A stretch of 64,000 nucleotides of DNA from Pseudomonadota bacterium (lineage in GTDB: Bacteria > Pseudomonadota > Alphaproteobacteria > Caulobacterales > Hyphomonadaceae). The notes below the pieces were generated by a model, which was not told the origin of the DNA, did no database searches, and worked only from the letters and a program-made list of their open reading frames with translations. The position numbers and the translations under genes were made by a program. The stretch covers positions 1,874-65,873 of the forward strand of contig JBCBGZ010000009.1 of NCBI GenBank assembly GCA_038526245.1, written 5' to 3'. Shown in pieces: positions 9,230 through 27,695 of this stretch (its first letter is position 1; every line of letters begins with the position of its first letter).

Positions 9230-9346
9230 GGCTTACGCCCCGATCATTCTCAAAACGCCAAATTTTGCACCACCGCAAAATCGGCCTCTTCCATTGCTCC
9301 ATCCCCTGCCCCCATATAGACGAGGAGAGTGAGACGCGAAAAGACC

Positions 9347-9922
9347 ATGGGCGCAGACACAGGTTCGCTGGATAATCCGGGCAGCAATGAGGCGCCATAT
9401 GCAAAGCGCACCATCGCCCTTGTGGGGTTGATGGGCGCTGGCAAGTCCACGGTCGGGCGTCGCCTGGCAGATCGGCTTGGTCGGAAATTCTATGACAGTG
9501 ACGTGGAAATCGAAAAGGCGGCAGGCCTTTCGATTTCGGACATCTTCTCGATCCATGGCGAGGCGGAGTTCCGGCGCGGCGAGAGGAAAGTGCTGGCCCG
9601 ACTCCTGGAAGATGAGCCTCACGTACTCGCCACGGGCGGTGGAGCGTATCTGGACCCCGATACCCGCACCATGCTGCGGGACCGCGCAATCACGGTTTGG
9701 TTGAATGCGGATCTGGAGACGATCTGGAAACGGGTGTCGCGGCGCGATACCCGGCCTTTGCTCAGGGCGCCAGACCCAAAAGGCGTGTTGACGCGCCTGT
9801 TTGAGGAACGTGAGCCGATTTATAGCCAGGCAGATCTTTCGGTCGCCAGCGTGGATGGGCCGCATAACGAAACCGTGATGGCCATTATCAAAGCCCTTGA
9901 GGGATGGACCGGACATGCCTGA
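9347..9922 (+). CDS. aroK: shikimate kinase AroK
   Basis: [30 protein letters not shown] (Walker A), [11 protein letters not shown]. The start is ambiguous between GTG 9329 and ATG 9347. Confidence 0.9.
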
Positions 9923-11042: not shown

Positions 11043-11054
11043 GGGCCACACACC

Positions 11055-12350: not shown

Positions 12351-12380
12351 ACCAGCGGGCGAACAGCTTGCTCCCACCCC

Positions 12381-12411
12381 AAAAAAAGGGTGCCCCCTTG
12401 CGAGGACACCC
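12381..12411 (-). terminator. rho-independent terminator of the 12453..12794 gene
   Basis: Minus strand reads GGGTGTCC-TCGCAAGG-GGGCACCC (8-bp stem with one G:U) followed by TTTTTTT. It lies ~40 nt after the stop. Confidence 0.7.
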
Positions 12412-12452
12412 CAAGTCGGCAGTTCCACTCGGAGGGCCGAGCGACCGTCTGA

Positions 12453-12794
12453 TTAACGTGTCAGAGCGGCCATTTGGCGCCGAGCAGCTGGGTCACCGAT
12501 CTGCTCTCCGTGGAAAGCGATCAGGCTTTGATTCTGTGTGGCCGCGACGGCCTTTGCGAGGAGGGTTTCTGTGCAGGCCTCCTGCATCCGCATCCGCGCA
12601 CCGAGTTGGCGGACCTCGCTGGGGGAGACCCGGCAGGCGGCCTTCGCTGTGTCGATAAAGGTGGCATAGGTCTTTGAGACCGGCGCAGTTGGGGAGTAGG
12701 TGAAGTCTGCCTTTACGGGTGCTTCTGCGGCAGCAGTTGCGGCGAAGGCCGTAAATGCGGCACCTGCAAGGAAGGTTTTGATCATGCGTGTCAT
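12453..12794 (-). CDS. small secreted protein, possibly UrcA family
   Basis: Starting at ATG 12794 (GAGGAG upstream) gives the signal peptide MTRMIKTFLAGAAFTAFAATAAAEA. The mature part has 2 Cys. The family call comes from overall resemblance only. Confidence 0.45.
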   Translation of the reverse strand: MTRMIKTFLAGAAFTAFAATAAAEAPVKADFTYSPTAPVSKTYATFIDTAKAACRVSPSEVRQLGARMRMQEACTETLLAKAVAATQNQSLIAFHGEQIGDPAARRQMAALTR

Positions 12795-13009
12795 GGGTGT
12801 CTCCTCAGAAAGCGATGTGTGCACAGCGTCTCGTGCTGTGACGTCACCCTTGCTGAGCTGGGCCAGCGAGGTCCTTGTGGAGACCTGAAAACGGCCTGAT
12901 TTTCGTCTTATGAAAATCTGATGATGTTGTTTTTATTGCGTTTTCGGTTTCAAGTTTGCCCTTGTGACGCCCCATTGCGCTGATAATCTACCTTTGTAGA
13001 CGGGGGACC

Positions 13010-14950: not shown

Positions 14951-14962
14951 GCACTTCGCAAC

Positions 14963-16795
14963 TCAGGCTTCGGTGAATTGCAACTCCGCCAGCCGGGCAT
15001 AAAGGCCGCCTGCAGCGACCAAGTCATCATGGGTACCCTGCTCCACAATCCGGCCCGCATCCATCACAATGATCCTATCAGCCCGGCGCACGGTGGCGAG
15101 ACGGTGAGCAATGACCAGGGTTGTGCGCCCCTCCGCAGCCTTCGCAATGGCGCGCTGAACCGCAGACTCACTTTCGCTGTCCAACGCACTGGTCGCTTCA
15201 TCCAGCAGAAGCACCGGCGCATCGCGGACAAGGGCACGGGCGAGGGCAATCCTCTGGCGCTGCCCCCCGGACAGGCCCCGTCCCTTCTGACCCAGTTCGG
15301 CGTCCAGTCCACCCTTGGTCTCCAGAAAAGCCCGGGCTTCGGCCATGTCCGCGGCCTCCAGCAGCTCTGAATCGGACGCCTCGAGGCCTCCAAATGCAAT
15401 GTTTTCGCGCGCGGTCCCGGTAAACAACGCAGATTCCTGGGGTGCATAGGCAAACTGACCGCGCCAGGCGTCGAGGTCACAGCTCTTCGCAGGGACGCCG
15501 TCGAGCCGCACGGCGCCAGCCTCCGGATCAAACAACCGCAAAGCGAGGCGAAAGACAGTGGATTTTCCGGCGCCACTGGGGCCGACAAGTGCGATGAAAT
15601 CGCCTGGTTTCACAGCCAGAGAAAAGTCTGAAAGCGCAGGTGCCTCGCCAGGCGCATATCGGAAAGTCACATCGTTAAAACTCAAAGCCCCGCTGGTGCG
15701 CTCCGGCAAGGCCACTGGCTGTGCAGGGCTTGTGATCTCCGGCTGCGCACTCAGCACATCTGCGGCCCGGTCTGCCGCGCCTGCCGCGCGCATCACTTCG
15801 CCGTAGACCTCTCCAAGCATGCCGAACCCCGACCCGGCGTAGAGCGCATACAGCACCATCGCCGTGAGATCTCCGCCGGTCATCGCACCGGTGGCCACCG
15901 CGCGGGCCCCAAGCCACAGAACCAGCGTGATCCCGCCAAAAGCGAGGATCGAAATCAGCAGCATCATCCAAGCGCGTACCGTGTTGCGCTTCAGGGCGGC
16001 AGCGAAGGTTTCTTCCACGGCCCGGGTGAACCGGGCCTTTCGGGCGCGCCCCTGGCCGTAGGCCTGGACGAGTTCGATGGCGTCGAGGGTTTCGGCGGCT
16101 TCTGCCCCGGCATCGGCCAGAGCAGACTGGGTTTGGTTGGAGAGACTGCGAATAATCCGGCCGACGGCCATGATTGGCAGGATTGCCAAGGGAATGATCA
16201 CCAACAACATGCCGCCCAACTGCCAGTTCACCAAAAGCATGGCGATTAATGCGCCCACGGTGTTGAGCAAGGTACGCGTGGCCAGCGACATGGACGAGCC
16301 GAGGAAGTTCTCGATCAGCGCCACATCCGCGGTCAGGCGCGAGACAGCCTCTCCCGAACGCATCTTTGAATGATACCGGGAGGAGAGTCCCAACATATGC
16401 CCGTAAAGATCCCGGCGCAGATCGGCCGCAATCCTTTCGCCGAACCGGGACACAAAGTAAAACCGTAGCGCACCCACCCCCCCCAATGCGACGGCTGCGA
16501 GAAACACAAACAGGAAATTCTGGTTGATGGCGCCCAACACGGCATCCGTGCTCGCGCCCGCGCCAAACCCCGCATCGACAGCACCGCCAAACAAGATGGG
16601 AATGGTCAGCGAAATCACGGTGCCCATGAGCAGGAACACCAAAGCCGCCCCAACGGTCAGCTTGTGCTGCAAGGCGTAGGGCAACAGCATCGCTAAGGGT
16701 TTTAGGCTCCGTCCCTTCGGCCTTTCGTCCGCCGCGGCGCGCGTATCGACCGCTGAGCGACGGTCGATTTCAACGGTTTCAGTGTCTTGCGCCAT
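14963..16795 (-). CDS. ABC exporter, fused permease/ATPase (ABCB/MsbA type)
   Basis: Six-TM domain plus NBD: Walker A GPSGAGKST, signature LSGGQRQRIALARAL, Walker B VLLLDEATSALD. The start is moved to ATG 16795, which has GGAG upstream. Confidence 0.9.
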   Translation of the reverse strand: MAQDTETVEIDRRSAVDTRAAADERPKGRSLKPLAMLLPYALQHKLTVGAALVFLLMGTVISLTIPILFGGAVDAGFGAGASTDAVLGAINQNFLFVFLAAVALGGVGALRFYFVSRFGERIAADLRRDLYGHMLGLSSRYHSKMRSGEAVSRLTADVALIENFLGSSMSLATRTLLNTVGALIAMLLVNWQLGGMLLVIIPLAILPIMAVGRIIRSLSNQTQSALADAGAEAAETLDAIELVQAYGQGRARKARFTRAVEETFAAALKRNTVRAWMMLLISILAFGGITLVLWLGARAVATGAMTGGDLTAMVLYALYAGSGFGMLGEVYGEVMRAAGAADRAADVLSAQPEITSPAQPVALPERTSGALSFNDVTFRYAPGEAPALSDFSLAVKPGDFIALVGPSGAGKSTVFRLALRLFDPEAGAVRLDGVPAKSCDLDAWRGQFAYAPQESALFTGTARENIAFGGLEASDSELLEAADMAEARAFLETKGGLDAELGQKGRGLSGGQRQRIALARALVRDAPVLLLDEATSALDSESESAVQRAIAKAAEGRTTLVIAHRLATVRRADRIIVMDAGRIVEQGTHDDLVAAGGLYARLAELQFTEA

Positions 16796-16939
16796 AGGGT
16801 CTCCGGGACCTGTGGAAAGAAACGGCATCCAGCGCCTTGATCAAGTCCTGTGGATCATGTATTCGGCGCGCTTGATTTTTACGCGTGGTCAAACGCGCGC
16901 ACCCATGTTTTGCGCCCACGGCTTAAAGAGGCAGGCACG

Positions 16940-17155
16940 ATGAAATCCGAAGGACATCCCGACTATCACTTCATCACGGTTGTGATGAATGACGGCACCG
17001 AATACCAGACCCGTTCGACCTACGGAAAAGAAGGCGATCGCCTCGTCCTGGATATCGACCCCACCACGCACCCGGCCTGGACCGGCGGCGGCGCCCGCAT
17101 TTCTGACCGCGGCCGCGTGTCCAAGTTCAAGGACAAGTTCAAGGGCTTCATGTAA
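16940..17155 (+). CDS. rpmE: 50S ribosomal protein L31 (Cys-less type)
   Basis: [50 protein letters not shown]. The ORF-track start at 16850 lies upstream of the conserved N-terminus. Confidence 0.95.
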
Positions 17156-17179
17156 GCCTTACCCCAACACGAAATCAGA

Positions 17180-17210
17180 AGCCCTCGCCCACTGTGGTCG
17201 GGGGCTTTTT
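17180..17210 (+). terminator. rho-independent terminator of rpmE
   Basis: AGCCCTCG-11 nt-CGGGGGCT (8-bp stem with one G:U) followed by TTTTT. The stop codon of the convergent patatin gene (17211-17213) abuts it. Confidence 0.75.
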
Positions 17211-19973
17211 CTATTCGGGGCCTGTTGTGTCCTCTGGCGTCTCGGAACATGTCGCAAAGCCGTCCAGGCACAGCGCATCGTGCAGGGCCGGGATCTGGTG
17301 GTCCACACGGCGCAGGATCGGCTCACCGGCATCACCAAGCAGCCACCCCAATGGAAGGTCCACCGGACGGGGCTTGTAAACCGGGGTTTCACTGGCTGTA
17401 TCGCCATAGGCGTCCCGGCCGCCACACACTTCATCGGCTTGCGCCTGAAGCGGTGAGGTCAGCCACTGGTATCCGGAAGAAGATACATCCTCCTTGAAAG
17501 CAACTTGGAAACGCGGGTCGGGTCCATCGCAATCATCAGCCGGTCTTGCGCTAACTGGATCAGCGAGAAACCCATTCAAATCTTCGCAGTGGCTGTCTCC
17601 TTCTGCTAATCGATCGCCTTCAATCGTTCGGCAGAGCTGGGCAATAGGCACCTGGCCATGGGCGCCCCGCGCCTTGAGAACACCGTTCAGTGGGACCGCA
17701 AAATCGAAAAAGGCGGGCAAGCGCGCTTCGGGCAAATCGCCGGGCAAACCGCGATAATTGATGTGAAGCACCACGATCAGCTTATCAGGCGCGATGCGGC
17801 GAAGTTGGGCAACTGCGCGCTGGATGCCCGCAGCGCCGGAATTGTCATAGTAGCCGCCATCGATGAAAGGCCCTGCGCCCCGTTGATCGCAATCCACATT
17901 GCCAGGGCACAACCGCCCCGGTGGACTGATCAGCGGAAAGCGAGCGGACATATGCGCAGCGCTTGCGACATCGAGATAGGCTCCCGGCGTGCTCCCTGGT
18001 TCGATCACGTCCAGAACGTTCCAATAGGGATAGGCATTGGCCCAGCCGGGTTCTTCATCGAGGTCGGCGCCCGAAAGACGATCTCCATAGCGGACATTGC
18101 TGACAATCGCAGGCTGACCTGATCGAACATCAAACGTGTTGAACACGACGATGGGCGGTGCTCCCCCAGATCCGAGCTCGCCACCTGTTCCACTGGCAAG
18201 GGCAACCGCTTCAAGAAAGCCCAGGGCGGGGGCTTCCAGATCGGCCTCCCCGTCTCTGAGATCGGCATCTGTCTGACGGAAGCCCTGCCGGAAGGAGTCT
18301 TCGAACACGCCTGCCCGATCGAACTTGTCTTTGAAGCTGCAATCGGTGAACACGCACCAGCTGATGTTCATTGGAAAGTCGCGCAGCATGAAGCCGGACA
18401 TGAGGGGAGAGAAGAAGTCTTTCTGCAGGAAGCTGGTGGTCAGCAGAGGGAGATAGGATCTATCCGGTCTGACCTCGTTGCTGGGGCTGAACGCGAAATC
18501 ACAGCCACCCGTTTGCGCCTCCAATGCGCGGAACTGATTGCCGCGGTTCATTTCCGCCCGCGCGCTCAAATAGGCCCCGAGGCCCACCGACCCGCCGGAA
18601 ACGCCCGACATGGCAAAAATCGAGTCGTAGAATTCGGTGTCCTGGGAATCGAGGCATGTCATTACAGCGGCCGTGTGTAGGGCTGCGCGAATCCCGCCGC
18701 CTTCAGCCAGTACGATGATGGCAGGGGCATCCCTGGCTGCGCGCGCGTCGACCCATGACTGGACCGCTTCATCAACATTCTGAACAGATAGATCGTCGCG
18801 CTCTGCGACCGACTGGATCTGAATGTTGTGGTAGTTCGACGTCCCCACAGCGCCGGATAGGATCGCCACGCCCAGAATAAAGAATGCGAACGGCATGCTT
18901 TCACGGCGAGCATTCAGATAAGCGAAAAACGCGAATACACCGCCCAGCGCCAAGAGGCACACCAGGAGCGTCGCAACGGGGCCGGCGAAACCAGCGACGG
19001 CAGCAGGTCGCAAGGCAAAACCCAGCATCAACGCGGCGAAAACGACCACAAAAGCCCAGGACACACGTGTTCGGCGCCGCCCATACACAAAGAACTGGTT
19101 CGTATTCGAGTAGAACTGGCGCATCATCCAGGTCGTGGTGTTGGCGGTGGTCCAGAGGATCGACAACAAAAGGGCAGCCAAAGAGACATAAACCCCGGTC
19201 GCAGCGCTCGAGGCAAAATCGAGCGTACGCAATCCGTTTCGAACCGTTTCCATGACGGGGCCCGCCAGCACGCCGGACGTGAAAGCCAGCAGCCAAACGA
19301 TAATCAGTGCATTGAGGAGCCAGATCGCCGTGGTCTCAACGGCGCGCAGCCATGCGCTCGGTTTTGGATTGCGCCAGGCAGGCGTCGAGAAATCGTAGAT
19401 GGCGCTGGCGATGAATACCAGCACGACGCCATAGCCAATCCGGGCGCGCACATCGCCAATCCAGCTAAAGGTGCTTTCCTGATATTCGACCCAATTCTGC
19501 AGGTAGAACAGAAGCAATGCGACGGGTAACGCCAAAGCCGCAACCGCCGCCACACGAAACCTTGCCCGCAGACGCGGCTCTGCCCGGCTTGAAAACGGAT
19601 AGTATACGTTGATCGAGCGAAGGACCGCTTCATGCACGGCAGCGGAAAAAAACATGAGCGCCAGGAACGAGCATACCATGCGCCAATGCCCGCCCGGGTA
19701 ATTCAGGCTCACCGAGTACTTTAGCGCTTCTCGGCCCTGGCTCGTGCCTGTTGCAATCAACAATGCCGCCACAACCGCCGCCAGAATGGGCCATGCGGTC
19801 CGGACCATGTTCAAATAACTGGTCAAAACCGACCAGCGCGTGGGTTTATCATTGTTCCAAATGGCCTGCAGGGCGGGCCAAAGGCCCTGACTCATGGGCC
19901 GTGTGAATGTGTCTGTCAGGTCATCGGCAATAGCCGACACTTTCAGGTGAGAAGAACCGCTCTGATCTGTCAT
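17211..19973 (-). CDS. polytopic membrane protein with patatin-like phospholipase domain and Cys-rich C-terminal region
   Basis: About nine hydrophobic segments in the first ~370 aa. Patatin motifs follow: IIVLAEGGGIRAAL (oxyanion GGGxR), AMSGVSGGSVG (GxSxG) and FIDGGYYDNSG (catalytic Asp-Gly-Gly). There are 12 Cys after the TM region. GAGG SD overlaps the upstream stop. Confidence 0.8.
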   Translation of the reverse strand: MTDQSGSSHLKVSAIADDLTDTFTRPMSQGLWPALQAIWNNDKPTRWSVLTSYLNMVRTAWPILAAVVAALLIATGTSQGREALKYSVSLNYPGGHWRMVCSFLALMFFSAAVHEAVLRSINVYYPFSSRAEPRLRARFRVAAVAALALPVALLLFYLQNWVEYQESTFSWIGDVRARIGYGVVLVFIASAIYDFSTPAWRNPKPSAWLRAVETTAIWLLNALIIVWLLAFTSGVLAGPVMETVRNGLRTLDFASSAATGVYVSLAALLLSILWTTANTTTWMMRQFYSNTNQFFVYGRRRTRVSWAFVVVFAALMLGFALRPAAVAGFAGPVATLLVCLLALGGVFAFFAYLNARRESMPFAFFILGVAILSGAVGTSNYHNIQIQSVAERDDLSVQNVDEAVQSWVDARAARDAPAIIVLAEGGGIRAALHTAAVMTCLDSQDTEFYDSIFAMSGVSGGSVGLGAYLSARAEMNRGNQFRALEAQTGGCDFAFSPSNEVRPDRSYLPLLTTSFLQKDFFSPLMSGFMLRDFPMNISWCVFTDCSFKDKFDRAGVFEDSFRQGFRQTDADLRDGEADLEAPALGFLEAVALASGTGGELGSGGAPPIVVFNTFDVRSGQPAIVSNVRYGDRLSGADLDEEPGWANAYPYWNVLDVIEPGSTPGAYLDVASAAHMSARFPLISPPGRLCPGNVDCDQRGAGPFIDGGYYDNSGAAGIQRAVAQLRRIAPDKLIVVLHINYRGLPGDLPEARLPAFFDFAVPLNGVLKARGAHGQVPIAQLCRTIEGDRLAEGDSHCEDLNGFLADPVSARPADDCDGPDPRFQVAFKEDVSSSGYQWLTSPLQAQADEVCGGRDAYGDTASETPVYKPRPVDLPLGWLLGDAGEPILRRVDHQIPALHDALCLDGFATCSETPEDTTGPE

Positions 19974-19981
19974 GTCCGACC

Positions 19982-21298
19982 TCAGAGCTCATCTGTTGTC
20001 TGGGACAAGTCTTCCAGCCGCCGGGGCGCCTCGATGCGTCGGAACGCCTTCGTAATCAGGCGCTCATCCTCATCGGTATAGCCCAGCAGTGCGACGCCCT
20101 TAATCTTGCTGTTCGCAATTCGCTCCGGCGAGAAGTAGGCCACGATGGCTCGGACCATCTCCATCGCGTTTCTTTCCGCTTTCTGGGGAGATGCGTAAGA
20201 GCCGATCAAGGGAATGATCACGGTTCTCAGGGGCTGTTGGAACCGTGTCTTGTTGCTGTCGTCCATCGCGCTGAGCACGCCTGTGACGCATTTCGCAATC
20301 TTGTCGCCGGATACCGCTCTATACCCAGCACCGGGTTCGCGGCCCTTCAATTCCACCGCAGCAACATGGGCGACGGCTTTCACCAGATTCACGCTCTTGA
20401 GGTCCCCCTTGGTGGACGTGAGCTGTGCAAACCCTGGCTCTACGGGCCCAGCAGGCAGTTTCTGCGCCACTTGCCGACGCATGAAATCATCGCTGCGCGT
20501 GCCGCCACCCGTCCATTTCGATGACAGATGCCGAATTGTTCCCGAGATAGACGTATCGAACACGCGGGCCATTTCGAGGTGGGTGTTCTCCGGGTTCACC
20601 CAGACATCGACCCCCTTCACCATGCGGATATCACCGACTGCAATCGCTACGCGCGGGCTATTGGCCAAGCCGCTCAACGCATACTGTCGATACTGCGGCG
20701 CCTTACCCTTTTTTCGGTCTGATCCACGCAAGGAAACGGAAAGCGCTTCAAGGTCTTTGTAGACGGGGCTGAACCGCTCACCGGCGACGGTCGGTCCCAT
20801 CGCCTCAATGACCTTCGCCTTTACCCGGCTGCGAACGTCGGCCTCCTGTTCCGCATCCTGACCGGCATAGAGTGCAATATCGGCCACGGGTCGCGGGTAT
20901 GACACCATGCGATAGTGCTGGTTTCGATCAATCGCGATGGCGGGCCCCTTCGACAGGACGAGCCGCATACTGAGATAGCTCAGAGCGCGGTGATCATAGT
21001 CGGTCACATCTGCAATGCAGAGTTCAGCCAGATGCATCGCTCGGTAAGCCATCTCCATATCGGCATCGGAGCCGGCAAGGCGACGATTTAAGCGTACAAC
21101 CTGGATCGCTCGCCCAAGCGTGGCCTCAGCCTCGCTGATGGCCGGCAAAATCACCCGTTCCTGAAACGCCTTCGCCTTTCTGTGCGCTTCATGATCGAAC
21201 GGGCTGATGAGGACAATGTCTGCCTCGTCAATGTCCTGTCGCGTGGCGAGTTCTTCGTCCAGCGCCGGTTCGTCCCCCGAATGGCTGTCGTTGGACAT
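19982..21298 (-). CDS. two-domain protein: nucleoside-2-deoxyribosyltransferase/TIR-like Rossmannoid N-domain + divergent macro domain
   Basis: N-domain: IVLISPFDHEAHRKAKAFQERVILPAI...AELCIADVTDYDH...SKGPAIAI. C-domain: VAIAVGDIRMVKGVDVWVNPENTHL...GFAQLTST...AVAHVAAV...TVIIPLIGSYASP, which aligns by eye with the macro pattern GDIT..VD.IVNAAN / G.A..T / H.VGP / S.AFP.I.TG but lacks the GGG loop. Start set at ATG 21298 (AGAGGG SD). Confidence 0.6.
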   Translation of the reverse strand: MSNDSHSGDEPALDEELATRQDIDEADIVLISPFDHEAHRKAKAFQERVILPAISEAEATLGRAIQVVRLNRRLAGSDADMEMAYRAMHLAELCIADVTDYDHRALSYLSMRLVLSKGPAIAIDRNQHYRMVSYPRPVADIALYAGQDAEQEADVRSRVKAKVIEAMGPTVAGERFSPVYKDLEALSVSLRGSDRKKGKAPQYRQYALSGLANSPRVAIAVGDIRMVKGVDVWVNPENTHLEMARVFDTSISGTIRHLSSKWTGGGTRSDDFMRRQVAQKLPAGPVEPGFAQLTSTKGDLKSVNLVKAVAHVAAVELKGREPGAGYRAVSGDKIAKCVTGVLSAMDDSNKTRFQQPLRTVIIPLIGSYASPQKAERNAMEMVRAIVAYFSPERIANSKIKGVALLGYTDEDERLITKAFRRIEAPRRLEDLSQTTDEL

Positions 21299-21333
21299 GT
21301 CACCCTCTTGCATGTGCGTCCCCTGAAAAAAAG

Positions 21334-22245
21334 CTACCGGGCGGATTGAGCGTTGCAGAAGAACGTCAGCCCGCGCTCCAATTGGCCAGCGCATGCCGGT
21401 GAGCGCTCGTCGCCATCGCTGGCGCACGCCGACCCCGCGGGCTCAATGGCCAGGACACTGGCCACATCTGCGGCGGCATAAATGTAGCCATTGCGAGCAA
21501 ACACCGCCGAATTGTCCCCTGTCTGGGCGCGTGTCCGCATCGTGTTCAGCCATGTGGGGCTGCCCGACTGCGCTGCAGCGTTGAAGGCGCAGGCATTGGC
21601 AATCTGGCGCTCAGAGATCGGTGTCAAATCCTGATCGCCCAAAGGAAACGCTGAGATGGCGTCCTGGTAGGTGGGCCAGTCCTGGGTCACGGCGACACCG
21701 TAGCTCTCCGCACTGGCCTTGGCGGCCTCGGCATCATCATTGGAGACAGCAGCCTCGAATTCAGCCAGCGCCGTTTCGCTGCCATTGAGGACCTGCACCA
21801 TGGTGCCTGCAGCGCAACGATAGCCGAGGCGGGGGTCCGCTGTTCCGTCACCACAGGCTTCCTGAAGCGCCGATGTCGCCGAAAGCACTTCCGTGCGATA
21901 GGCGCCAACAGCGTCAGCGCCAGCGGGCGTCATCATCGCTGCCATGTCGTAGGCGTTCGCTGCGATGGACAACCAAACCAGGCGCGCATCACTGTCATCG
22001 GCAGCCGCATCGGCCTTGCCATTGGCATCTTCAGCCAGCGCTGCCATGGCATCGACTGCAGCCTGTAGAGCCTCCGGCGTGTCGGCTCCAAGGGCATCCT
22101 CAGCGTGCCCTTCAAGCCGGCTGTCATAGCCCGAAGTCAGGTTGAAAATGTTCATCCCGGTCACGGTGCCGCCGTTATCGGTGGTGGCACACCCGGCCAG
22201 AACGATGGAAGCGGTTGCCAGGAGGGCTGCGAAACGGTGGGTCAT
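21334..22245 (-). CDS. Ala-rich lipoprotein of unknown function
   Basis: Lipobox MTHRFAALLATASIVLAGC, six further Cys, GAAGGAG SD. The start overlaps the upstream stop (ATGA). Confidence 0.7.
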   Translation of the reverse strand: MTHRFAALLATASIVLAGCATTDNGGTVTGMNIFNLTSGYDSRLEGHAEDALGADTPEALQAAVDAMAALAEDANGKADAAADDSDARLVWLSIAANAYDMAAMMTPAGADAVGAYRTEVLSATSALQEACGDGTADPRLGYRCAAGTMVQVLNGSETALAEFEAAVSNDDAEAAKASAESYGVAVTQDWPTYQDAISAFPLGDQDLTPISERQIANACAFNAAAQSGSPTWLNTMRTRAQTGDNSAVFARNGYIYAAADVASVLAIEPAGSACASDGDERSPACAGQLERGLTFFCNAQSAR

Positions 22246-24431
22246 CCAAGGGCTCCTTCACGGAAGACGGGATTGATTACGGGGCCATCGGTCGGGCTCT
22301 CGCCGGGGGCCGTTGGAGGTGAGGTTTCCGAGAAGACCGATTCCGTCTCCGGCTCGGGCCCAGATGGGCCGTCACTGGCAAGCGCTCGACGTTCGGCATT
22401 CAGAACAATGTCAGCAATTTTGGCGGGCGGAATCGCTTCCGACGGGTTTGCGATTGCGTCTGCGGCAAACCAGCGGAACGCATACACCCAATCATCGGCA
22501 GTCAGGCTTCGTCCCCCCAACAGACTGCTGTCCGCCGCCATCTGGTTCAGTGTCCCGATAAAGTTCAGCAGGGCCGGAAGGGTCTGGGGTTCTGCAAGGC
22601 GCCTGGCATTGGAAACCGCCGTGTCCAGCACAGCCATCAGCGCCCGTGTCAGCGTTTCGCCAAACATGAGACGCCCACCTTCGCGCGCCAAACCGCCCGT
22701 GGCCTGGTCCTTCAGGCTCGCCGAGGCTGTGCCCAGCACCTGGGTGATCAGTTGAACGGCCAGGTGTTCATGCGGGCTGTTTGCGTTGAGGCTGAACAGT
22801 GCGCCGGGGTTCTGCATCGCCAGGTCCGTTGCCTTGGCAGACACACGTTTCCAGTCGCGGCGCGTGAGCAATGATGCATGTTCGCTGGCGATAAACGCGG
22901 CAACGCCCTCGGCGATGCGCACCACTTCGTCATTCACGTCATTGGGCAGGATCATACCCGGTGTCTGGGCGGCCTGATCGGCAATGATGCCAACCACTTC
23001 CATGAGAAAATCCAGGTCTGCATCCAGCGGAAGGACATTGACGGAAACGCCCTGGTCGCTGAACCGCGTGATCATTCCGTTGGCAATGCGCGTGACAATC
23101 TTGATGCCCACCGCCGCCCAAGGCTCTGCATCACCGGTGGCCGTGGCATTGCTGGCTTGGGCGCTGCTGGTCCATGCGGCGAGTTCCTGACGGGCTTCGT
23201 CGACAAGGAAAGTGCGGGCATGCTTGCGGGTAATCTGCATCCCCATTTCGAACAGGGCCTGGGTCAGTTTCGGACTCTTCTCGACCGTCAAATGCGTGTG
23301 CAGAGCGCCCATCATGGAGGTCAGCAATTCCTGACCGCCGACGACATGCTGGCCCTTGCCGCGCACGAACGCCTCGGGCGACTCCGACACGGCCTGCAGC
23401 ACGAGCGGGAAACTGCGGCGCACAAAGCCGGGCGCAAAGACCTGGCGGATATCGTCAGGCGACGCCTGGGCCTGGTCGATCACGCCCTGGAAAAGGGCCT
23501 CGGTCACGACGCCCGCTGCCTCGGTCTTTTCAGGATAGTTGTCGAAGAATAGGCGCCGGTTTTCGTGCAGCGACTCCAAAAGACCCATTGCGATGGGACC
23601 ACGCAGAGTCTTGCGGACGGAGTTGAACCGCTGGAGCGTGGACATGCCCTGTCCAGAATTTTCCACGTTTAACGTGCGCAGGGGCTCTGCCACAGCCGAC
23701 ACCAGGCTTTGAACGTGTTGTTCTTCAGAAAACAGCTCGGGCCGGGCCGCGGCCATATCGAGGCTGGTAGAAATGAACATGTCCAGCATACGCTTGGGCA
23801 TGCCTGCCGAAAAGGCTGTCTCGACGAACTGGTCCTTTCGGGTGTCGAAATAGGTGTTCAGACTGGACGCAAGAGTCGCAACGACGCCCTGGGCGTCGGG
23901 CCCTACACCAAGCTTATGACTGCCGGCCGACAGGACGGAGAAGCTCAGCTGGATTGCAGAAAAGAGAATGGAATTTCGATCCCGCCGGGCAGCGTCCGCG
24001 CTGTCCCAATTCTTGATCTCATGGAGAAAGAACTGATCCCTAACATTCATATCCGGACGCACATCACTGGGCACGGGGCCAAACCGCTCGTCCCAGAGAC
24101 CATCGGCCTTCGACAAGCGCCCCAGGATTTCAGCGATCAGGTCCGAGCGGCGACCAGCGTCCGCATCTGCGGAGATAAAGAAACTGAACTCATCGGCGTC
24201 GATAACGTCGGCGTAGCGAGGACGGATGTCGGAAAACACGCCCTGGGGGCCGAAAAAGTCTTCATTCGACAGGAGCGCCGTCGCCACGGCTTCCGGGTTA
24301 CGGGGCGCGACCTGGGGGATAAGCACCACCATGTCCTGCAATTGGGCGCGGGTGTCGATAAACTCGCGGACCGACTGGCTCATGCCGAATATAGCCCGAA
24401 CGACCCCAAGAATACTCGTGGTTGCCAGCAT
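22242..24431 (-). CDS. 729-aa hypothetical protein (no TM, no recognisable motif; Pro/Ser/Glu-rich tail)
   Basis: Long ORF with a strong SD (GAGGAGGGAAG). Its codon pattern is consistent with its neighbours. I saw no P-loop, nuclease or protease signature. Confidence 0.65.
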   Translation of the reverse strand: MLATTSILGVVRAIFGMSQSVREFIDTRAQLQDMVVLIPQVAPRNPEAVATALLSNEDFFGPQGVFSDIRPRYADVIDADEFSFFISADADAGRRSDLIAEILGRLSKADGLWDERFGPVPSDVRPDMNVRDQFFLHEIKNWDSADAARRDRNSILFSAIQLSFSVLSAGSHKLGVGPDAQGVVATLASSLNTYFDTRKDQFVETAFSAGMPKRMLDMFISTSLDMAAARPELFSEEQHVQSLVSAVAEPLRTLNVENSGQGMSTLQRFNSVRKTLRGPIAMGLLESLHENRRLFFDNYPEKTEAAGVVTEALFQGVIDQAQASPDDIRQVFAPGFVRRSFPLVLQAVSESPEAFVRGKGQHVVGGQELLTSMMGALHTHLTVEKSPKLTQALFEMGMQITRKHARTFLVDEARQELAAWTSSAQASNATATGDAEPWAAVGIKIVTRIANGMITRFSDQGVSVNVLPLDADLDFLMEVVGIIADQAAQTPGMILPNDVNDEVVRIAEGVAAFIASEHASLLTRRDWKRVSAKATDLAMQNPGALFSLNANSPHEHLAVQLITQVLGTASASLKDQATGGLAREGGRLMFGETLTRALMAVLDTAVSNARRLAEPQTLPALLNFIGTLNQMAADSSLLGGRSLTADDWVYAFRWFAADAIANPSEAIPPAKIADIVLNAERRALASDGPSGPEPETESVFSETSPPTAPGESPTDGPVINPVFREGALG

Positions 24432-24477
24432 GCCTGCTTCCCTCCTCAGGCCGACCCGCGGCCAACTCTACCCAATT

Positions 24478-25839
24478 TTACTTCGGCGCCACCTCGGGCG
24501 GAAGCGTGCCGATAACCCGGCCCGGTGGCGGCTCACGATGCTGGTCGCTCCAGGCGTCTTCTTCTTCGCTCAATTCAACTTCCGTCCCGCGCCCCAACAC
24601 GGTGAGGTAAGCCCGCTCCAACTCCGCCGGACGCAGGTCCAGCGGGCGGCGCACGGCGCCCAGCCGGTCTGCCGGCACAGTGGCAGTTACTTCAGCTTGC
24701 GGCTTTGAACTCCCCGGTACAGGAGAACTTAGAGTCAGGCGTGCCATCGGCGCCACGATCGCTGCCCCGCGCGCAAACAAGCGGAACCAGAACGGCGCCC
24801 CGAGACCCAGCAGCCCCCCTCCGATCAAAATGCCAACCAACCACATCGTAAAGGTGCCGGGATTGTTCCAGATCGCCACGCCGCGATTGCCAACATGGCC
24901 GGCGAGCGTGCCAATCGAGTGGGACGATGACGACGCCTGCAGATAGTCACCATAGCTCTGCTGCCACGAAACTGTTTTCGCCTCGCCGCGCTCTAGCTCA
25001 ACATTACAGCGGGTATCTCGATAGGTTTCGGCATCGGCCTCCGACGCAACCACGAAGCCCTCACAATATGGGAACATCTTGCGCCCGACGGGCACGCCCA
25101 TGTCGAGGAACGTTGTCTTCAGCCCTTGCAGGTCCGGCGAGTTCAGCGCGGCAGAGATCTGCGTGGTCGCGCCCTCTTCCGTTAGGTTCTGGGCCTGCTG
25201 AAAGCTAGACGACTCTGCCAGCGTGGACAGCCGCGCCGACAGCGTCGCATTGGTGGCAAGCTCCTTATAGAGCGTGATCGCATCGAGATTGACGAAGAAT
25301 GCAACCGCGATCCCGGCCAGCACCGAGACCATGTTCGCACGGGAGCGGAAATACTCCGTCTGGGCTTCGCCGATCCGCTCAAACTCATAGGCCGCAGCTG
25401 TCAGCGCACGTCGCAAGCGCGGGCGATCGTGGCGCGCGAGAGCCTGGCCCTCAGGCGTTTCAGCAAGCCGCTCAATGAACTGTAACGTACTCATCTTCTG
25501 GACGCGCGAAGACAGTATCTGGCCAATCAGCGGCCAGCGCCGAATGTACCAGGGCCTGAGGTTCTCCGAAGCCGCGCGCCGGGTCATTGAATGGGCGAAG
25601 TTTCGGCTGTCGGCGGATGCCACATGGCTCCCGGTGGCGCCGGGCGCGCTTTGCTCAGGCGGCGTATCATTGGGTTGCAGGTTGGCGAGTTTCTGGTCGT
25701 AGAAGTTTCGCAGCATCTCGGACATGCCGGCGCTGCGCAGGGCAAACATCTTGTGGATGCCTTCGACAACCACCGACACGATTGTGGAATAGACCGCAAC
25801 GACCGCTGCAAATCCGACCAGTGCGAGGAGCAACGCCAT
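24478..25839 (-). CDS. 453-aa membrane protein of unknown function (about 3 TM)
   Basis: TM segments MALLLALVGFAAVVAVYSTIVSVVV, MVSVLAGIAVAFFVNLDAITL and MWLVGILIGGGLLGLGAPFWF. It is the first gene of the five-gene operon. Confidence 0.65.
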   Translation of the reverse strand: MALLLALVGFAAVVAVYSTIVSVVVEGIHKMFALRSAGMSEMLRNFYDQKLANLQPNDTPPEQSAPGATGSHVASADSRNFAHSMTRRAASENLRPWYIRRWPLIGQILSSRVQKMSTLQFIERLAETPEGQALARHDRPRLRRALTAAAYEFERIGEAQTEYFRSRANMVSVLAGIAVAFFVNLDAITLYKELATNATLSARLSTLAESSSFQQAQNLTEEGATTQISAALNSPDLQGLKTTFLDMGVPVGRKMFPYCEGFVVASEADAETYRDTRCNVELERGEAKTVSWQQSYGDYLQASSSSHSIGTLAGHVGNRGVAIWNNPGTFTMWLVGILIGGGLLGLGAPFWFRLFARGAAIVAPMARLTLSSPVPGSSKPQAEVTATVPADRLGAVRRPLDLRPAELERAYLTVLGRGTEVELSEEEDAWSDQHREPPPGRVIGTLPPEVAPK

Positions 25840-25938
25840 TTGGGAATCCCACCCTTAGTTTCACTCAAACTGGACGGGACTAAAGCATTGAGGCACTGTC
25901 CTGACAACTTTTCAGTAACTTTTTGGCAGGGGACGCCC

Positions 25939-26868
25939 GTGGCCCAAAATCTCCAGGTGACTGCCCGCAGTGGGCTGAATATTCGACGTTTCCCCGTGGA
26001 TACTGCAGATCGGCTCGCCGCAATGCCCCGCGGAATGGTCGTTGAACCCCTCGATCCGCTGGTGTGGAACGGTCGATGGCGCCGTATCCGGGCCACGTTT
26101 TCCACTAATGCGGTCGTAGAGGGATACAGTGCGGTCGACTATCTGAGCCCCGTTGGAGTTTCTGCCTCGAACACGGTCCGTGTGGCACCGGTGACGGGAA
26201 ACACCCATGCGGGGGGCAGCGCGGCAACGAACACTCAACCGACACCGTCACGCCCTGTGCCGCCGCCCCCTAGCCGCAAGGATCTTGTCCGCCGCGCCGT
26301 GCCAGCCTCCCTCGTGGCAGGCCTTTTCCACCATTCCGTTGCCGATAATGTTGAACGCTATCTGCCGCTGGTCCTCGATGCCATGCGCGAGGCTGAATTG
26401 GACGATTGGCCCCACATCATAACAGCCCTGGGCACGATCAAGGCTGAGACCGCCGGGTTTGATCCCATCGCGGAGTACGAGTCCCAGTACAATACCGAGC
26501 CGGAAGGGCGCCCCTTCGGAAAGTATGATTTCCGCACAGACATCGGCAACAATGCCGAAGGAGACGGCTATAAGTATCGTGGACGCGGCTTCGTCCAACT
26601 CACCGGCAAGGACAATTACCGGCGCTATGGCGAGCGCCTCGGCATCGACTTGGTCAACGATCCGGACCAAGCGCTGCAACCTGATATCGCAGCGCGGATC
26701 CTCGCGACCTTTATGCAGGATCAGAAAGACCGGATTGCACAGGCCTGGGCGTCTGAAGACTGGGCGGACGCGCGCAAGGCTGTAAATGGCGGTCGCCACG
26801 GCCTTGAGGCATTTGAGAAAACCGTAAAGGCAGCACGCACGATTTTCGATTGGTCAAAGCCGATCTGA
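25939..26868 (+). CDS. SH3b-domain + GH19-like (chitinase/lysozyme-type) peptidoglycan hydrolase, no signal peptide
   Basis: N-terminus: LQVTARSGLNIRRFP...GMVVEPLD...WRRI (SH3b-like). Pro-rich linker: QPTPSRPVPPPPS. C-terminus: IKAETAGF...GDGYKYRGRGFVQLTGKDNYRRYGERLGIDLVNDPDQ (GH19-type endolysin motif). Start placed at in-frame GTG 25939, because the ORF-track start at 25591 overlaps the divergent gene. Confidence 0.7.
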   Translation: MAQNLQVTARSGLNIRRFPVDTADRLAAMPRGMVVEPLDPLVWNGRWRRIRATFSTNAVVEGYSAVDYLSPVGVSASNTVRVAPVTGNTHAGGSAATNTQPTPSRPVPPPPSRKDLVRRAVPASLVAGLFHHSVADNVERYLPLVLDAMREAELDDWPHIITALGTIKAETAGFDPIAEYESQYNTEPEGRPFGKYDFRTDIGNNAEGDGYKYRGRGFVQLTGKDNYRRYGERLGIDLVNDPDQALQPDIAARILATFMQDQKDRIAQAWASEDWADARKAVNGGRHGLEAFEKTVKAARTIFDWSKPI

Positions 26869-26963: not shown

Positions 26964-27695
26964 ATGAAACGCACGCTGATTTCCATCGCCGCCGCCTTAT
27001 TGCCCGCCACGCTGGCCGGCGCTGCGCCATTCGAAGAAGGGGACACACACATGCACTCATACATCTTGCTCGACCGCACAGGCTCCATGTCCAGCATCTG
27101 GGACGAAGCGCTGACCTCCGTGAACGCCTATGCAAAAACTGTGGGCGAAGAGCGCGAAGGCGAGGCGCCCGATACGCTCAACACAGAAATCACGCTCGCA
27201 GTCTTCGACCACCAGGGCGGGCTGCAGTACGATGTTCTCCGCCGCAAGAGCGATGCCGACAGCTGGCAGGCCGTCACCTCGGACGAGGCCAGCCCGCGCG
27301 GAATGACGCCGCTGTTCGACGCCATTGGCCGGACTGTTTCCATGGCCGAGGCCGACAATCCTGAGCGCGCCGTCATCGTCATCATGACCGATGGCCACGA
27401 AAACGCCTCGCAGGAATTCACCAAGGACACCGCCCGCGCTGCGCTGGACCGCGCCCGCGCCAAGGGCTGGGAAGTCATTTTTCTGGGGGCCGATTTCGGC
27501 CAGTTTGGCGACGCAGAAGGTGTTGGCATGGCCCAGAGCAAGGTGATGGGCATGAGCGCTGGCACCATGCAGGAATCCATGCAACGGCTGGCCACCAAGG
27601 CCCGCGACTACGGCACCGGCGAAGAAGCCGAGGTGAACTTCAACGACGAAGACCGCGCCATCGCTCGCGAAAACGATGTGAAAGGCGAACGGTAA
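26964..27695 (+). CDS. secreted von Willebrand factor A (vWA) domain protein
   Basis: Signal peptide MKRTLISIAAALLPATLAGAAP. MIDAS-like LLDRTGSMS...MTPLFDAIG...VIVIMTDGHENAS. ATG 26964 has AGGGAGA upstream. Confidence 0.8.
   Translation: MKRTLISIAAALLPATLAGAAPFEEGDTHMHSYILLDRTGSMSSIWDEALTSVNAYAKTVGEEREGEAPDTLNTEITLAVFDHQGGLQYDVLRRKSDADSWQAVTSDEASPRGMTPLFDAIGRTVSMAEADNPERAVIVIMTDGHENASQEFTKDTARAALDRARAKGWEVIFLGADFGQFGDAEGVGMAQSKVMGMSAGTMQESMQRLATKARDYGTGEEAEVNFNDEDRAIARENDVKGER

Follow-up and report, generated by a model that had tools for sequence, protein, structure and literature searches.

Gene content and boundaries of the locus

The window analysed here is the whole 64,000-nt stretch of contig JBCBGZ010000009.1 (assembly GCA_038526245.1), positions 1,874 to 65,873 of the forward strand. 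It contains five minus-strand open reading frames (g1-g5), which were re-found at the coordinates given in a preliminary description of this DNA. The features of the locus, in map order, are:

17177..17209, plus strand: rpmE terminator, hairpin and T-run (-20 kcal/mol), the 3' boundary of the cluster, convergent with g5
17211..19973, minus strand: g5, 920-aa polytopic patatin-like lipase (motifs, PF01734 homologues, hydropathy)
19982..21298, minus strand: g4, 438-aa cytoplasmic Rossmannoid and macro protein (AF2, Foldseek, domains of homologues)
21334..22245, minus strand: g3, 303-aa lipoprotein (lipobox VLAG-C19; start overlapping the g2 stop)
22242..24431, minus strand: g2, 729-aa Cys-free all-alpha cytoplasmic protein (ORF call, AF2, family alignment)
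24478..25839, minus strand: g1, 453-aa inner-membrane protein (ORF call, hydropathy)
25840..25938, no strand: 99-nt intergenic region between the divergent g1 and hydrolase genes, conserved among close relatives
25939..26868, plus strand: 309-aa leaderless peptidoglycan hydrolase, SH3_3-like and GH19 (GH19, E 4e-6; phrog_181 endolysin, E 4e-39)
26964..27695, plus strand: 243-aa secreted VWA-domain protein (VWA, E 2e-5; phrog_7371, E 1e-37; signal-peptide-like N-terminus)

The spacing is also as previously described, with 46 nt between g1 and g2, a 4-nt ATGA overlap of g2 and g3, 35 nt between g3 and g4, and 8 nt between g4 and g5. Shine-Dalgarno-like motifs precede four of the five starts, namely GAGGAGGG for g2, GAAGGAG for g3, AAGAGGG for g4 and TGAGG for g5, the last overlapping the g4 stop; the motif of g1 is weaker. 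The g4 frame is open upstream as far as a GTG at 21427, and the N-termini of homologues support the ATG at 21298 as the likely start. The rpmE hairpin and T-run finish 1-2 nt short of the g5 stop, so that the terminator indeed abuts the last gene. None of the five proteins has a direct match in Pfam, NCBIfam, PADLOC or PHROGs. The five-gene order is seen again in the related loci L001/L012, L010 and L009, down to 53% identity, which shows that the arrangement is conserved and is not a chance run of ORFs. The conserved locus reaches further upstream than was recognized in the preliminary description, to the plus-strand hydrolase gene and then the VWA gene. Comparison of about 30 related loci indicates that the locus consists of two separable conserved modules, both so far undescribed: module A (g1-g3) and module B (the g4 macro protein and the g5 patatin).

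The g1-g3 trio and the associated peptidoglycan hydrolase

The genes g1-g3 form a fixed trio, a module of its own that is part of a wider unannotated family; profile searches bear out the earlier statement that these three proteins have no recognizable family. Hydropathy analysis of g1 confirms three TMs (3-21, 170-188 and 330-348), and the predicted topology is N-out, with a 148-aa cytoplasmic loop, a 141-aa periplasmic loop containing two conserved cysteines, and a 105-aa cytoplasmic tail. The invariant residues include E26 in TM1, N184 in TM2 and the GLGAPFWF motif in TM3. No match to g1 was found in Pfam, NCBIfam, PADLOC, PHROG or PDB profiles. In every module-A locus a g1 homologue takes the corresponding place, even in the remote L029 (E 1e-61) and L030 (E 6e-38).

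Comparison of the two halves of g2 (hhalign E 6e-5) indicates that the protein is probably built from a helical domain of some 180 aa that has been duplicated internally. The AF2 model is all helices and poor (pLDDT only 57.7), and no fold match was found with this model. In a search of 1.84e9 representatives, the wider g2 family comprises 273 clusters. The close relatives of g2 amount to only 17 clusters. Among 55 diverse members, there is no Pfam match and no invariant D, E, H, K, S or C, and g2 was not found in phage, plasmid and IMG/VR collections. The protein is probably a non-enzymatic scaffold or adaptor. The lipobox of g3, already noted in the preliminary description, is retained across all relatives, and every module-A locus has a lipobox-bearing protein at this position. 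Because residue +2 is Ala, g3 is probably an outer-membrane lipoprotein. It contains six further cysteines beyond C19, in a conserved pattern, and evolves much faster than g1 and g2 (27-36% versus 40-60% identity).

Across the approximately 30 related loci, module A almost always adjoins a leaderless SH3-fused peptidoglycan hydrolase that matches phage endolysin families. The hydrolase in the window starts with GTG at 25939, has no signal peptide, carries its SH3_3-like domain at the N-terminus, keeps both catalytic Glu residues of the GH19 domain and is of the endolysin type. The SH3 domain is conserved across loci (33-66% identity) and co-varies with g1-g3; the catalytic part is unrelated between loci, being exchanged among GH19, VanY/M15 and Amidase_2. 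In the remote L029, an SH3+Amidase_2 hydrolase sits at the end of the operon, and the best match of its amidase is AmpD, a cytoplasmic recycling enzyme; the remote L031 encodes a GH19+2xSH3 hydrolase. The VWA gene downstream of the hydrolase occupies the same place in the closest relatives, L009, L010 and L011, and in other arrangements this position is filled by a 2H phosphoesterase or a NUDIX gene. The region 25840..25938 is presumed to be a bidirectional control region for g1 and the hydrolase. No LexA or CtrA box was found in it; in arrangements I and III (see below), the sequence CGTCCAG precedes g1 by about 35 nt.

The macro protein and the patatin-like lipase

In g4, an alpha/beta Rossmannoid domain occupies the N-terminal half (about residues 25-170); it weakly resembles nucleoside 2-deoxyribosyltransferases (Nuc_deoxyrib_tr, E 0.0026 in one relative; a CMP hydrolase match was also obtained), and the catalytic Glu position is not conserved. 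Assignment of this domain as TIR was ruled out, there being no homology (hhalign probability 0.3%). A macro domain, as first proposed, makes up the C-terminal half (about residues 200-438): the AF2 model has a pLDDT of 90.6, Foldseek identifies macroH2A1.1/Af1521 (TM-score ~0.75-0.84, E 1e-8), and the homologues are PF01661 proteins, in many cases with fusions to TIR_2, HTH_31 or NB-ARC. The TIR, HTH and NB-ARC fusions among the closest macro relatives of g4 are conflict-system architectures.

The identification of g5 as a patatin is upheld by homologues with PF01734 and by the GGGxR, GxSxG and DGG motifs, which are invariant across 14 diverse members and all intact in g5 (oxyanion E424-GGGIRA, nucleophile G457-V-S459-G-G, dyad Asp D705-GG). 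Hydropathy gives 8-9 TMs, in line with the approximately nine previously counted. The catalytic domain covers about residues 380-920 and includes 12 cysteines. From a Cys census, the lipase domain of g5 is predicted to be periplasmic, as are g3 and the second g1 loop, and g2 and g4 are predicted to be cytoplasmic, so that the periplasm-facing, Cys-rich lipase region suggested earlier is probable. The g4 and g5 genes overlap or abut in every related locus, and g4 is translationally coupled to g5.

Distribution and arrangement of the modules

The distribution is patchy: 18 species-level loci, all Hyphomonadaceae-type, and rare remote relatives. The loci lie among housekeeping genes and have native GC3, with flanks conserved within each clade, which indicates that they are inherited vertically and do not belong to defence islands; only in L001 are an integrase and a Type ISP restriction enzyme next to the locus. 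Searches of the surroundings found no phage or GTA genes near the locus, and no outer-membrane channel, T6SS or eCIS structural genes near the Hyphomonadaceae loci. The reported absence of a named defence architecture is corroborated by PADLOC, which matches none of the five components, and no signal-generating enzyme (TIR, CD-NTase, ART, SIR2) was found in any arrangement.

Modules A and B are joined in two gene orders, once with an ADP-ribose-pyrophosphatase-like NUDIX protein (best match, ADP-ribose diphosphatase/YffH) and once with a 2H phosphoesterase (best match, RNA 2',3'-cyclic phosphodiesterase). The macro and patatin genes are located downstream of g3 in type I and beyond the hydrolase and NUDIX genes in type II, and the pair from Hirschia is closer to the type I pair than the type II pair is. 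This linkage in two different gene orders makes a functional connection likely. Module A adjoins the hydrolase in types I-III, and occurs without module B in type III, L011, L029 and L030; in L011, a close relative, module B is absent from the same chromosomal site, a clean loss. Conversely, Hirschia possesses module B without a close module A, and in three genomes this pair is found in a syntenic housekeeping context. Given that each module occurs apart, the coupling is facultative. The earlier view of the five genes as one system thus stands in part: all five genes are real and their order is conserved, but they comprise two modules, each found without the other.

Among the remote loci, L031 has a SLATT protein and a CBASS-type patatin together with a g2-like gene, a lipoprotein and GH19, and the last three are surrounded by genes of toxin-like character (eCIS_core, astacin, a C1 peptidase, GDPD and patatins). 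The pairing of a patatin with a peptidoglycan hydrolase recurs in L028 and L031; a distant TM-patatin adjoins a GH108 muramidase. Remote module-A loci are located beside YhdP or near TamB lipid-transport genes.

Relationship to known systems and possible functions

In type II Thoeris, the effector senses its ligand through a macro domain (bioRxiv 10.64898/2025.12.03.692087), and the patatin CapV is the commonest CBASS effector (PMC12480259), but it is highly improbable that the locus is a divergent member of either system. As in type II Thoeris (ThsB TIR and ThsA TM-Macro), an NAD-derived ligand is presumably sensed by a macro domain, here one whose nearest relatives are often TIR-fused, and sensing is linked to an output that damages the membrane. 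However, no arrangement includes a TIR gene, the N-domain of g4 is not TIR, the macro protein is soluble, with a Rossmannoid N-domain, a separate patatin lipase with nine TMs stands in place of a pore as the effector, and there is no PADLOC ThsA/ThsB match. With CBASS, the locus shares a patatin-type phospholipase as the likely cell-killing output of nucleotide sensing. However, CD-NTase is missing from all arrangements, and g5 is polytopic, with a lipase domain that is predicted to lie in the periplasm and to have a separate macro protein as its regulator, whereas CapV itself is soluble and binds the nucleotide directly; moreover, the CapV-like protein of L031 matches the PADLOC phospholipase effector models (E 3e-32), whereas g5 does not. 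The missing generator largely refutes a Thoeris or CBASS identity. As in the DarTG toxin-antitoxin, the gene for a macro protein directly precedes that for a potentially toxic partner and is tightly coupled to it; by domain content, however, this partner is a lipase, not an ADP-ribosyltransferase, so that there is no obvious substrate for DarTG-like reversal of ADP-ribosylation.

The reading preferred here, to which a probability of about 0.4 is assigned, is that of a nucleotide-gated autolysis or abortive-infection-type envelope-breaching system, in which the two modules together would allow a cell to breach its own envelope in a controlled way. The g1-g3 trio might hold, release or activate the cytoplasmic hydrolase across the inner membrane, with g1 as the membrane conduit, g2 as a cytoplasmic adaptor for the SH3 domain, and g3 as an outer-membrane or periplasmic partner. 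The g4 protein is predicted to bind an NAD-derived, ADP-ribose-type ligand and could act via the cytoplasmic loops of g5, switching on the periplasm-facing lipase domain; the NUDIX and 2H enzymes would remove the ligand. The joint output would be rapid lysis, by membrane lipid hydrolysis and murein cleavage, most likely for abortive-infection-type defence or other altruistic lysis. Speaking for this nucleotide-gated reading are the accessory NUDIX and 2H enzymes and the fusion of macro relatives to TIR; against it, the locus encodes no ligand generator.

Phage holin-endolysin-spanin cassettes and their domesticated forms ("type 10" secretion, GTA lysis genes) similarly combine a leaderless endolysin-type hydrolase, prone to catalytic-domain swapping, with an inner-membrane protein and an outer-membrane-type lipoprotein. 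The locus differs in that g1 (453 aa) and g3 (303 aa) greatly exceed holins and spanins in size, that g2 (729 aa) has no counterpart in such cassettes, and that phage and GTA genes are absent nearby. The size of g1, three times that of a typical holin, the lack of any PHROG match for g1 or g3, and the absence of g2 from phage, plasmid and IMG/VR collections speak against lysis. Mycobacteriophage LysA and LysB follow the logic of a murein hydrolase and a lipid esterase acting on different envelope layers. By analogy, the peptidoglycan hydrolase may be paired here, as in L028 and L031, with an envelope-aimed lipolytic enzyme, which differs in being a host-encoded patatin anchored by nine TMs.

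Vertical inheritance, housekeeping neighbours, facultative coupling of the modules and the lack of PADLOC matches are likewise at odds with lysis. The chromosomal, vertically inherited context favours a serious, if somewhat unlikely, rival, namely housekeeping envelope remodelling without suicide, whereby the trio would position or regulate the murein hydrolase and the macro/patatin pair would remodel membrane lipids. Such remodelling could serve growth or morphogenesis of the stalked, budding Hyphomonadaceae, or outer-membrane lipid homeostasis. Native composition, clade-conserved flanks, the syntenic housekeeping setting of the Hirschia pair, the proximity of remote loci to YhdP or TamB, the AmpD-like amidase of L029 and the absent PADLOC matches all count in its favour. 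However, the distribution is very patchy even inside the Hyphomonadaceae, and module B was cleanly lost in L011. Leaderless endolysin-like hydrolases with a sacculus-binding SH3 and swapped catalytic domains show a pattern characteristic of lytic enzymes, not of morphogenetic ones, the rest of the macro clade carries TIR, NB-ARC or HTH fusions, and a lipid-homeostasis machine would not be expected to have NUDIX and 2H companions.

Among antibacterial effectors that act in the periplasm, peptidoglycan hydrolases and lipases are the classic examples, and lipoproteins often serve as the corresponding immunity proteins. Non-lytic, holin/endolysin-dependent export resembling type 10 secretion, directed against neighbouring bacteria and carrying the hydrolase and perhaps the VWA protein, with g3 as a periplasmic immunity protein, would fit the permanent association of a signal-peptide-less hydrolase with a membrane protein and a lipoprotein, the immunity-like fast evolution of g3, and the toxin-like surroundings in L031. 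This route is nevertheless unlikely, considering that outer-membrane channel, T6SS and eCIS structural genes were not found near the Hyphomonadaceae loci, that g5, an integral membrane protein, cannot be a secreted toxin, and that the macro, NUDIX and 2H genes are left without a role. It is quite unlikely that two unrelated modules are merely adjacent in this lineage, the five-gene "operon" having no joint function. The separate occurrence of A and B is in accord with this possibility, but adjacency in two gene orders with divergent macro/patatin pairs is hard to explain by inherited synteny alone, the patatin/peptidoglycan hydrolase association recurs in unrelated loci, and the g3-g4 gap is short and terminator-free.

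Organization of the locus

The gene run consists of five open reading frames on the minus strand, bounded by a terminator on one side and by two genes of opposite orientation on the other:

17177-17209, plus strand: hairpin with a T-run (-20 kcal/mol) that terminates rpmE, convergent to g5
17211-19973, minus strand: g5, polytopic patatin lipase, 920 aa
19982-21298, minus strand: g4, Rossmannoid and macro domains, 438 aa
21334-22245, minus strand: g3, lipoprotein, 303 aa
22242-24431, minus strand: g2, soluble protein, 729 aa
24478-25839, minus strand: g1, membrane protein, 453 aa
25939-26868, plus strand: leaderless hydrolase, 309 aa, GTG start, SH3_3-like N-terminus and GH19 end (GH19 E 4e-6)
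26964-27695, plus strand: secreted VWA-domain protein, downstream of the hydrolase; match to the uncharacterized phage family phrog_7371 (E 1e-37)

The coordinates and translations of the five frames agree with the preliminary description, as do the spacings between successive genes (46 nt, a 4-nt ATGA overlap, 35 nt and 8 nt), the presence of SD-like motifs at four of the five starts (g2, g3, g4 and g5), the overlap of the g5 motif with the g4 stop, and the abutment of g5 on the rpmE terminator, the hairpin and T-run of which end just before the g5 stop. The pairs g2-g3 and g4-g5 are each tightly translationally coupled. Promoter and terminator scans within the cluster gave no signals above chance. 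Hydropathy analysis identifies 3 TM segments in g1 and 8-9 in g5, in line with the earlier estimates of about three and nine, and none in g2, in g4 or, apart from the signal/lipobox, in g3. The base composition and GC3 of the five genes resemble those of their neighbors, the rest of the window carries housekeeping genes (ABC exporter, aroB, AlkZ, PQQ dehydrogenase, pyrF, Tad-pilus genes, DegP, enolase), and no prophage or GTA signature was found in it. The locus is larger than previously recognized, with an endolysin-type gene located across a 99-nt intergenic region from g1.

None of the five proteins matches Pfam, NCBIfam or PADLOC (E<=1), g4 and g5 included, or PHROGs (E<=0.1), which bears out the view that g1, g2 and g3 have no recognizable family. 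Sequence and profile searches against the PDB with g1, g2, g4, g5, the g4 N-terminal domain and the g5 family produced nothing meaningful, and the g5 profile in particular found no patatin structure.

The g1-g3 trio and its leaderless hydrolase

The g1-g3 trio (hereafter module A), encoded beside the hydrolase, contains a single membrane protein, g1, in which two large soluble loops accompany the three TM segments. Its conserved positions are a Glu in TM1, an Asn in TM2, the GLGAPFWF motif in TM3 and two Cys residues in the second loop. In g3, six Cys residues are present beyond the lipid-modified one, and g2 has none in 729 residues. A periplasmic position is predicted for g3 and for the second loop of g1, and a cytoplasmic one for g2 and g4.

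A full HMMER profile search of 1.84 billion representatives assigns 273 clusters to the g2 family, 228 of them at E<=1e-10. Neither a Pfam domain nor a source name was found for any of 55 sampled members. Across these 55 diverse sequences only four positions are invariant (Pro twice, Asn and Leu once each), none of them acidic, basic, His, Ser or Cys, and g2 is probably a scaffold, not an enzyme. The N-terminal half (about residues 171-360) aligns with the C-terminal half (about 420-605) with hhalign E 6e-5 and a probability of 65%, a sign that a helical domain may have been duplicated within the proteins of this family long ago. An AF2 model built from 16 sequences reached a pLDDT of only 57.7 and matched no fold. 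A phage or plasmid origin of g2 was rejected, given that no match was found in INPHARED, PLSDB or IMG/VR.

The hydrolase retains both catalytic Glu residues of the GH19 domain and matches the endolysin family phrog_181 with E 4e-39. No signal peptide was found; the SH3_3-like domain starts directly at the N-terminus. Across the loci the SH3 domain is conserved at 33-66% identity, and the catalytic parts are unrelated (GH19, VanY/M15, Amidase_2 or VanY+GH19). Endolysins typically evolve in this modular way, with SH3 retained and the catalytic domain exchanged. In the region shared with g1 (25840-25938), no LexA (GTTC-N7-GTTC) or CtrA (TTAA-N7-TTAA) boxes were found. The element GTTACTGAAA(A/C)GTTGTCAGGAC is conserved there among close relatives. 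In gene arrangements I and III, as defined below (the window, L001, L007, L014, L015 and L018), CGTCCAG precedes the g1 start by about 35 nt; it does not do so in II.

The macro-patatin pair

The assignment of g4 as a macro protein is upheld by its predicted structure and by its homologs. The AF2 model (pLDDT 90.6) contains in its C-terminal half a three-layer alpha/beta/alpha macro fold, for which a Foldseek search against the PDB retrieves macroH2A1.1, Af1521 and MacroD2 (target TM 0.75-0.84, E about 1e-8); a BFVD search likewise yields macro and ADP-ribose hydrolase matches. Homologs of g4 at 25-37% identity carry PF01661, and an ortholog from a type II locus matches this profile with E 3.5e-4, just under the cut-off. 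Among the many PF01661 homologs of the C-terminal half, a large share is fused to TIR_2, XRE-type HTH, NB-ARC or SARP modules. An N235-x-x-N238 motif and a P363-L-x-G366 loop are invariant, and S-I-S-G stands in place of the Gly-rich loop 1. The N-terminal half is an alpha/beta Rossmannoid domain of 4-5 strands. Weak hits, namely a Nuc_deoxyrib_tr match in one relative (E 0.0026) and a CMP hydrolase of this superfamily in BFVD, hint at a nucleoside-deoxyribosyltransferase-like domain; the catalytic Glu position of deoxyribosyltransferases appears not to be conserved. A TIR domain is ruled out by an hhalign comparison with the TIR domains of TIR-macro relatives (probability 0.3%).

In g5, the patatin motifs occur in the expected order, the oxyanion motif E424-GGGIRA, the nucleophile motif G457-VS459GG and the dyad motif D705-GGY, and are invariant in 14 family members, the most distant of them at 21% identity. 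About one third of 94 homologs carry precomputed PF01734, and the ortholog from Hirschia scores 28.9 bits against this profile (cut-off 27.7). The patatin assignment is supported, and the catalytic motifs of the lipase are intact at the level of sequence. According to a hand analysis by the positive-inside rule, the N-terminus of g5 is cytoplasmic; given this orientation and nine TM segments, the lipase domain is predicted to be periplasmic. The distribution of Cys residues, 12 in the C-terminal domain and 0 in the TM domain, fits this prediction, in agreement with the earlier proposal of a periplasm-facing, Cys-rich region. A distant 1078-aa TM-patatin is encoded on another contig (L028, 3833-9237) divergent from a 551-aa protein in which GH108 and PG_binding_3 domains of the "holin-associated N-acetylmuramidase" type are fused to a multi-TM C-terminal domain, another lipase/murein-hydrolase pairing. 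Our literature searches found nothing pairing patatin with a peptidoglycan hydrolase.

Arrangement of the modules across genomes

A scan with the g2 alignment of one genome per GTDB species identified 18 loci, all in Hyphomonadaceae-type MAGs (Hyphomonas, Henriciella and others), one of them 98% identical to the window. These loci and contigs from an exact-protein look-up were compared in a tblastn table and display three arrangements.

Gene arrangements of module A and the macro-patatin pair (module B)
Type I (window, L009, L010, L001/L012): [VWA or 2H phosphoesterase <- hydrolase][g1>g2>g3>macro>patatin]
Type II (ten loci, e.g., L003, L016, L017, L026): [patatin <- macro <- NUDIX <- hydrolase][g1>g2>g3]
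Type III (L007, L014, L015, L018): [hydrolase][g1>g2>g3] only

The gene run is real, but the idea of a single five-gene system gives way to a composite of two modules and the overlooked endolysin-type gene, as indicated by the type III loci, by Hirschia and by L011. In the three Hirschia loci (L004-L006), the macro-patatin pair occurs in a syntenic housekeeping context without module A beside it. In L011, where g2 is 75% identical to that of the window and the rpmE/ABC-exporter flank is the same, the hydrolase, VWA and g1-g3 genes are present and g4-g5 are absent (6900-7900), which makes this locus a naturally occurring variant that lacks module B; its g3 frame is only 181 aa long. The VWA gene occupies the same position in L009-L011, and a 2H phosphoesterase or NUDIX gene is found there in other arrangements. 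The type II NUDIX protein best matches ADP-ribose diphosphatase/YffH, and the 2H protein of L001 best matches RNA 2',3'-cyclic phosphodiesterase, both below the curated cut-off. Metabolites of the ADP-ribose-phosphate type are processed by three enzyme classes, namely macro, NUDIX and 2H proteins.

Several of these loci have additional neighbors. In Hirschia (about 7600-9900), a conserved 140-aa VanZ-like membrane protein precedes the macro-patatin pair, and a TPR protein of ~305 aa and a 220-aa uncharacterized protein are encoded divergently beside it. Next to the 53%-identity five-gene relative (L001/L002/L012, 1-6000) are genes for a tyrosine integrase and for a Type ISP restriction-modification enzyme of 1620 aa, neighbors that the window copy does not have.

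Metagenome scans for loci of remote g2 relatives found none; three remote relatives of module A were recovered by look-up of contigs encoding such proteins:

L029: g1-like, g2-like and lipoprotein genes, then a leaderless SH3+Amidase_2 enzyme, in one operon
L030: the trio, with no hydrolase nearby
L031 (JGI 3300072073, probably Desulfobacterales), 2360-21301: g2-like protein (846 aa), lipoprotein, leaderless GH19+2xSH3 protein

The L031 genes are set amid toxin- or effector-like genes (eCIS_core, astacin, C1-peptidase, GDPD, SLATT/DUF4231, TPR-S and a CapV-type patatin with a PADLOC phospholipase match at E 3e-32). In L029 (4741-8184), module A lies directly downstream of a gene for the AsmA-like protein YhdP, and in L030 (21129-21935) a TamB gene lies near module A. 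YhdP and TamB have both been linked to the transport of lipids to the outer membrane; their vicinity to module A may be a coincidence.

Comparison with known systems and possible function

In type II Thoeris, a pore-forming effector binds His-ADPR through its macro domain (bioRxiv 10.64898/2025.12.03.692087), a logic of macro sensor and membrane effector that the locus studied here resembles. However, no TIR-domain ThsB gene is detected by Pfam or PADLOC in any of about 30 loci, and the Thoeris effector is a macro domain fused to TM helices, whereas g4 has none and no PADLOC match to ThsA. CBASS resembles the locus in its use of a patatin effector, CapV (PMC12480259), but a CD-NTase (cGAS/DncV-like) is absent from this and the related loci, and CapV is soluble, whereas g5 is polytopic and has no PADLOC phospholipase match, with the L031 patatin serving as the positive control. 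With the defining TIR and CD-NTase genes absent, and with an N-terminal domain of g4 that is not a TIR, the reading of the locus as a divergent Thoeris or CBASS is all but excluded. None of the five proteins matched a PADLOC model, in keeping with the preliminary description, according to which the set fits no named system; nor did our searches find a paper joining macro, patatin and anti-phage defense for such a system.

The reading that we favor, with a probability of roughly 40%, combines a gated hydrolase with a ligand-switched lipase. The g1-g3 proteins would hold or release the cytoplasmic endolysin-type hydrolase via its conserved SH3 domain, and an NAD-derived ligand sensed by g4 would switch on the periplasm-facing lipase g5, with NUDIX and 2H enzymes clearing the ligand. 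The envelope would be breached and the cell lysed, most plausibly as a response of the abortive-infection type or of another altruistic kind. Several observations weigh against such a mechanism: there is no signal generator, PADLOC gives 0 matches, inheritance of the loci is vertical within clades, and the coupling of modules A and B is facultative. The defense-island setting considered earlier was also not borne out for the window or for the type II and III loci, L001 alone having an integrase and a Type ISP enzyme in its vicinity. Envelope remodeling, the other reading offered in the preliminary description, is a less likely but serious alternative; both are retained, and the earlier interpretation is partly supported and sharpened. 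A holin-like system for non-lytic export or antagonism, with g3 as the immunity protein, is unlikely. The hydrolase side of the locus resembles phage lysis cassettes and holin-dependent secretion in its leaderless endolysin, but no small holin (about 60-220 aa, 1-4 TM) is encoded beside the endolysin gene, and g1, at 453 aa, has no PHROG match. The lipoprotein g3 is, at 303 aa, far larger than o-spanins and again without a PHROG match; the trio is unlike holins and spanins in both size and sequence. Moreover, g1-g3 are not phage-borne, and the housekeeping flanks in the window include no phage, prophage, GTA or tailocin cluster. Chance adjacency of two modules seems a little less probable than the export system. 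The macro and patatin genes follow g3 in type I but lie on the hydrolase side of module A in type II, a difference that argues for a functional link and against adjacency kept by inheritance alone; in addition, the type II pair has diverged further from the type I pair than the Hirschia pair has.

In a bolder form of this reading, which has a rather low probability, the locus would represent an unrecognized self-lysis or immune class. An ADP-ribose-type messenger would cause the Rossmannoid-macro protein to open the periplasm-facing lipase, and in parallel g1-g2-g3 would deliver the leaderless endolysin to murein as an envelope-spanning machine, formed by three families with a range from Alphaproteobacteria to a contig that is probably of Desulfobacterales origin. 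Proteins encoded by the host, not by a phage, would in this way attack both the lipid and the cell-wall layer when signaled to do so. With similarly low confidence, module A might be a categorically new envelope machine. How leaderless murein hydrolases are moved or unleashed without a classical holin matters for holin-dependent secretion, for explosive lysis and for the release of GTAs, and the trio, comprising three unannotated families and yet conserved with a clear genomic partner, the leaderless endolysin-type hydrolase, is a concrete, testable candidate for such a role. With the macro-patatin combination, the sensor-effector principle of Thoeris and CBASS would be carried over to a periplasm-directed lipase split from its sensor, and the presence of the pair in cultured Hirschia species makes part of the system experimentally accessible.

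Other features of the window

Elsewhere in the window, genes of a Tad/Cpa-type pilus occupy 43817-48935 on the minus strand, and a protein with the architecture of a SARP/BTAD-like regulator is encoded next to an exporter:

7486-9201, minus strand: putative long ORF, 571 aa, without a Pfam match at E<=1e-5
13010-14950, plus strand: 646-aa protein, OmpR-type winged-helix DNA-binding domain ahead of TPR repeats, architecture as in SARP/BTAD-like regulators
14963-16828: MsbA-like ABC exporter, adjoining the 646-aa protein
41756-42946, plus strand: putative long ORF, 396 aa, without a Pfam match at E<=1e-5
43817-45259, minus strand: T2SSE-family ATPase of the pilus
47451-48935, minus strand: secretin of the pilus, with a pilus N-terminal region and a BON domain
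53069-53145, plus strand: tRNA-Arg(CCT), the sole tRNA and sole Rfam match in the window
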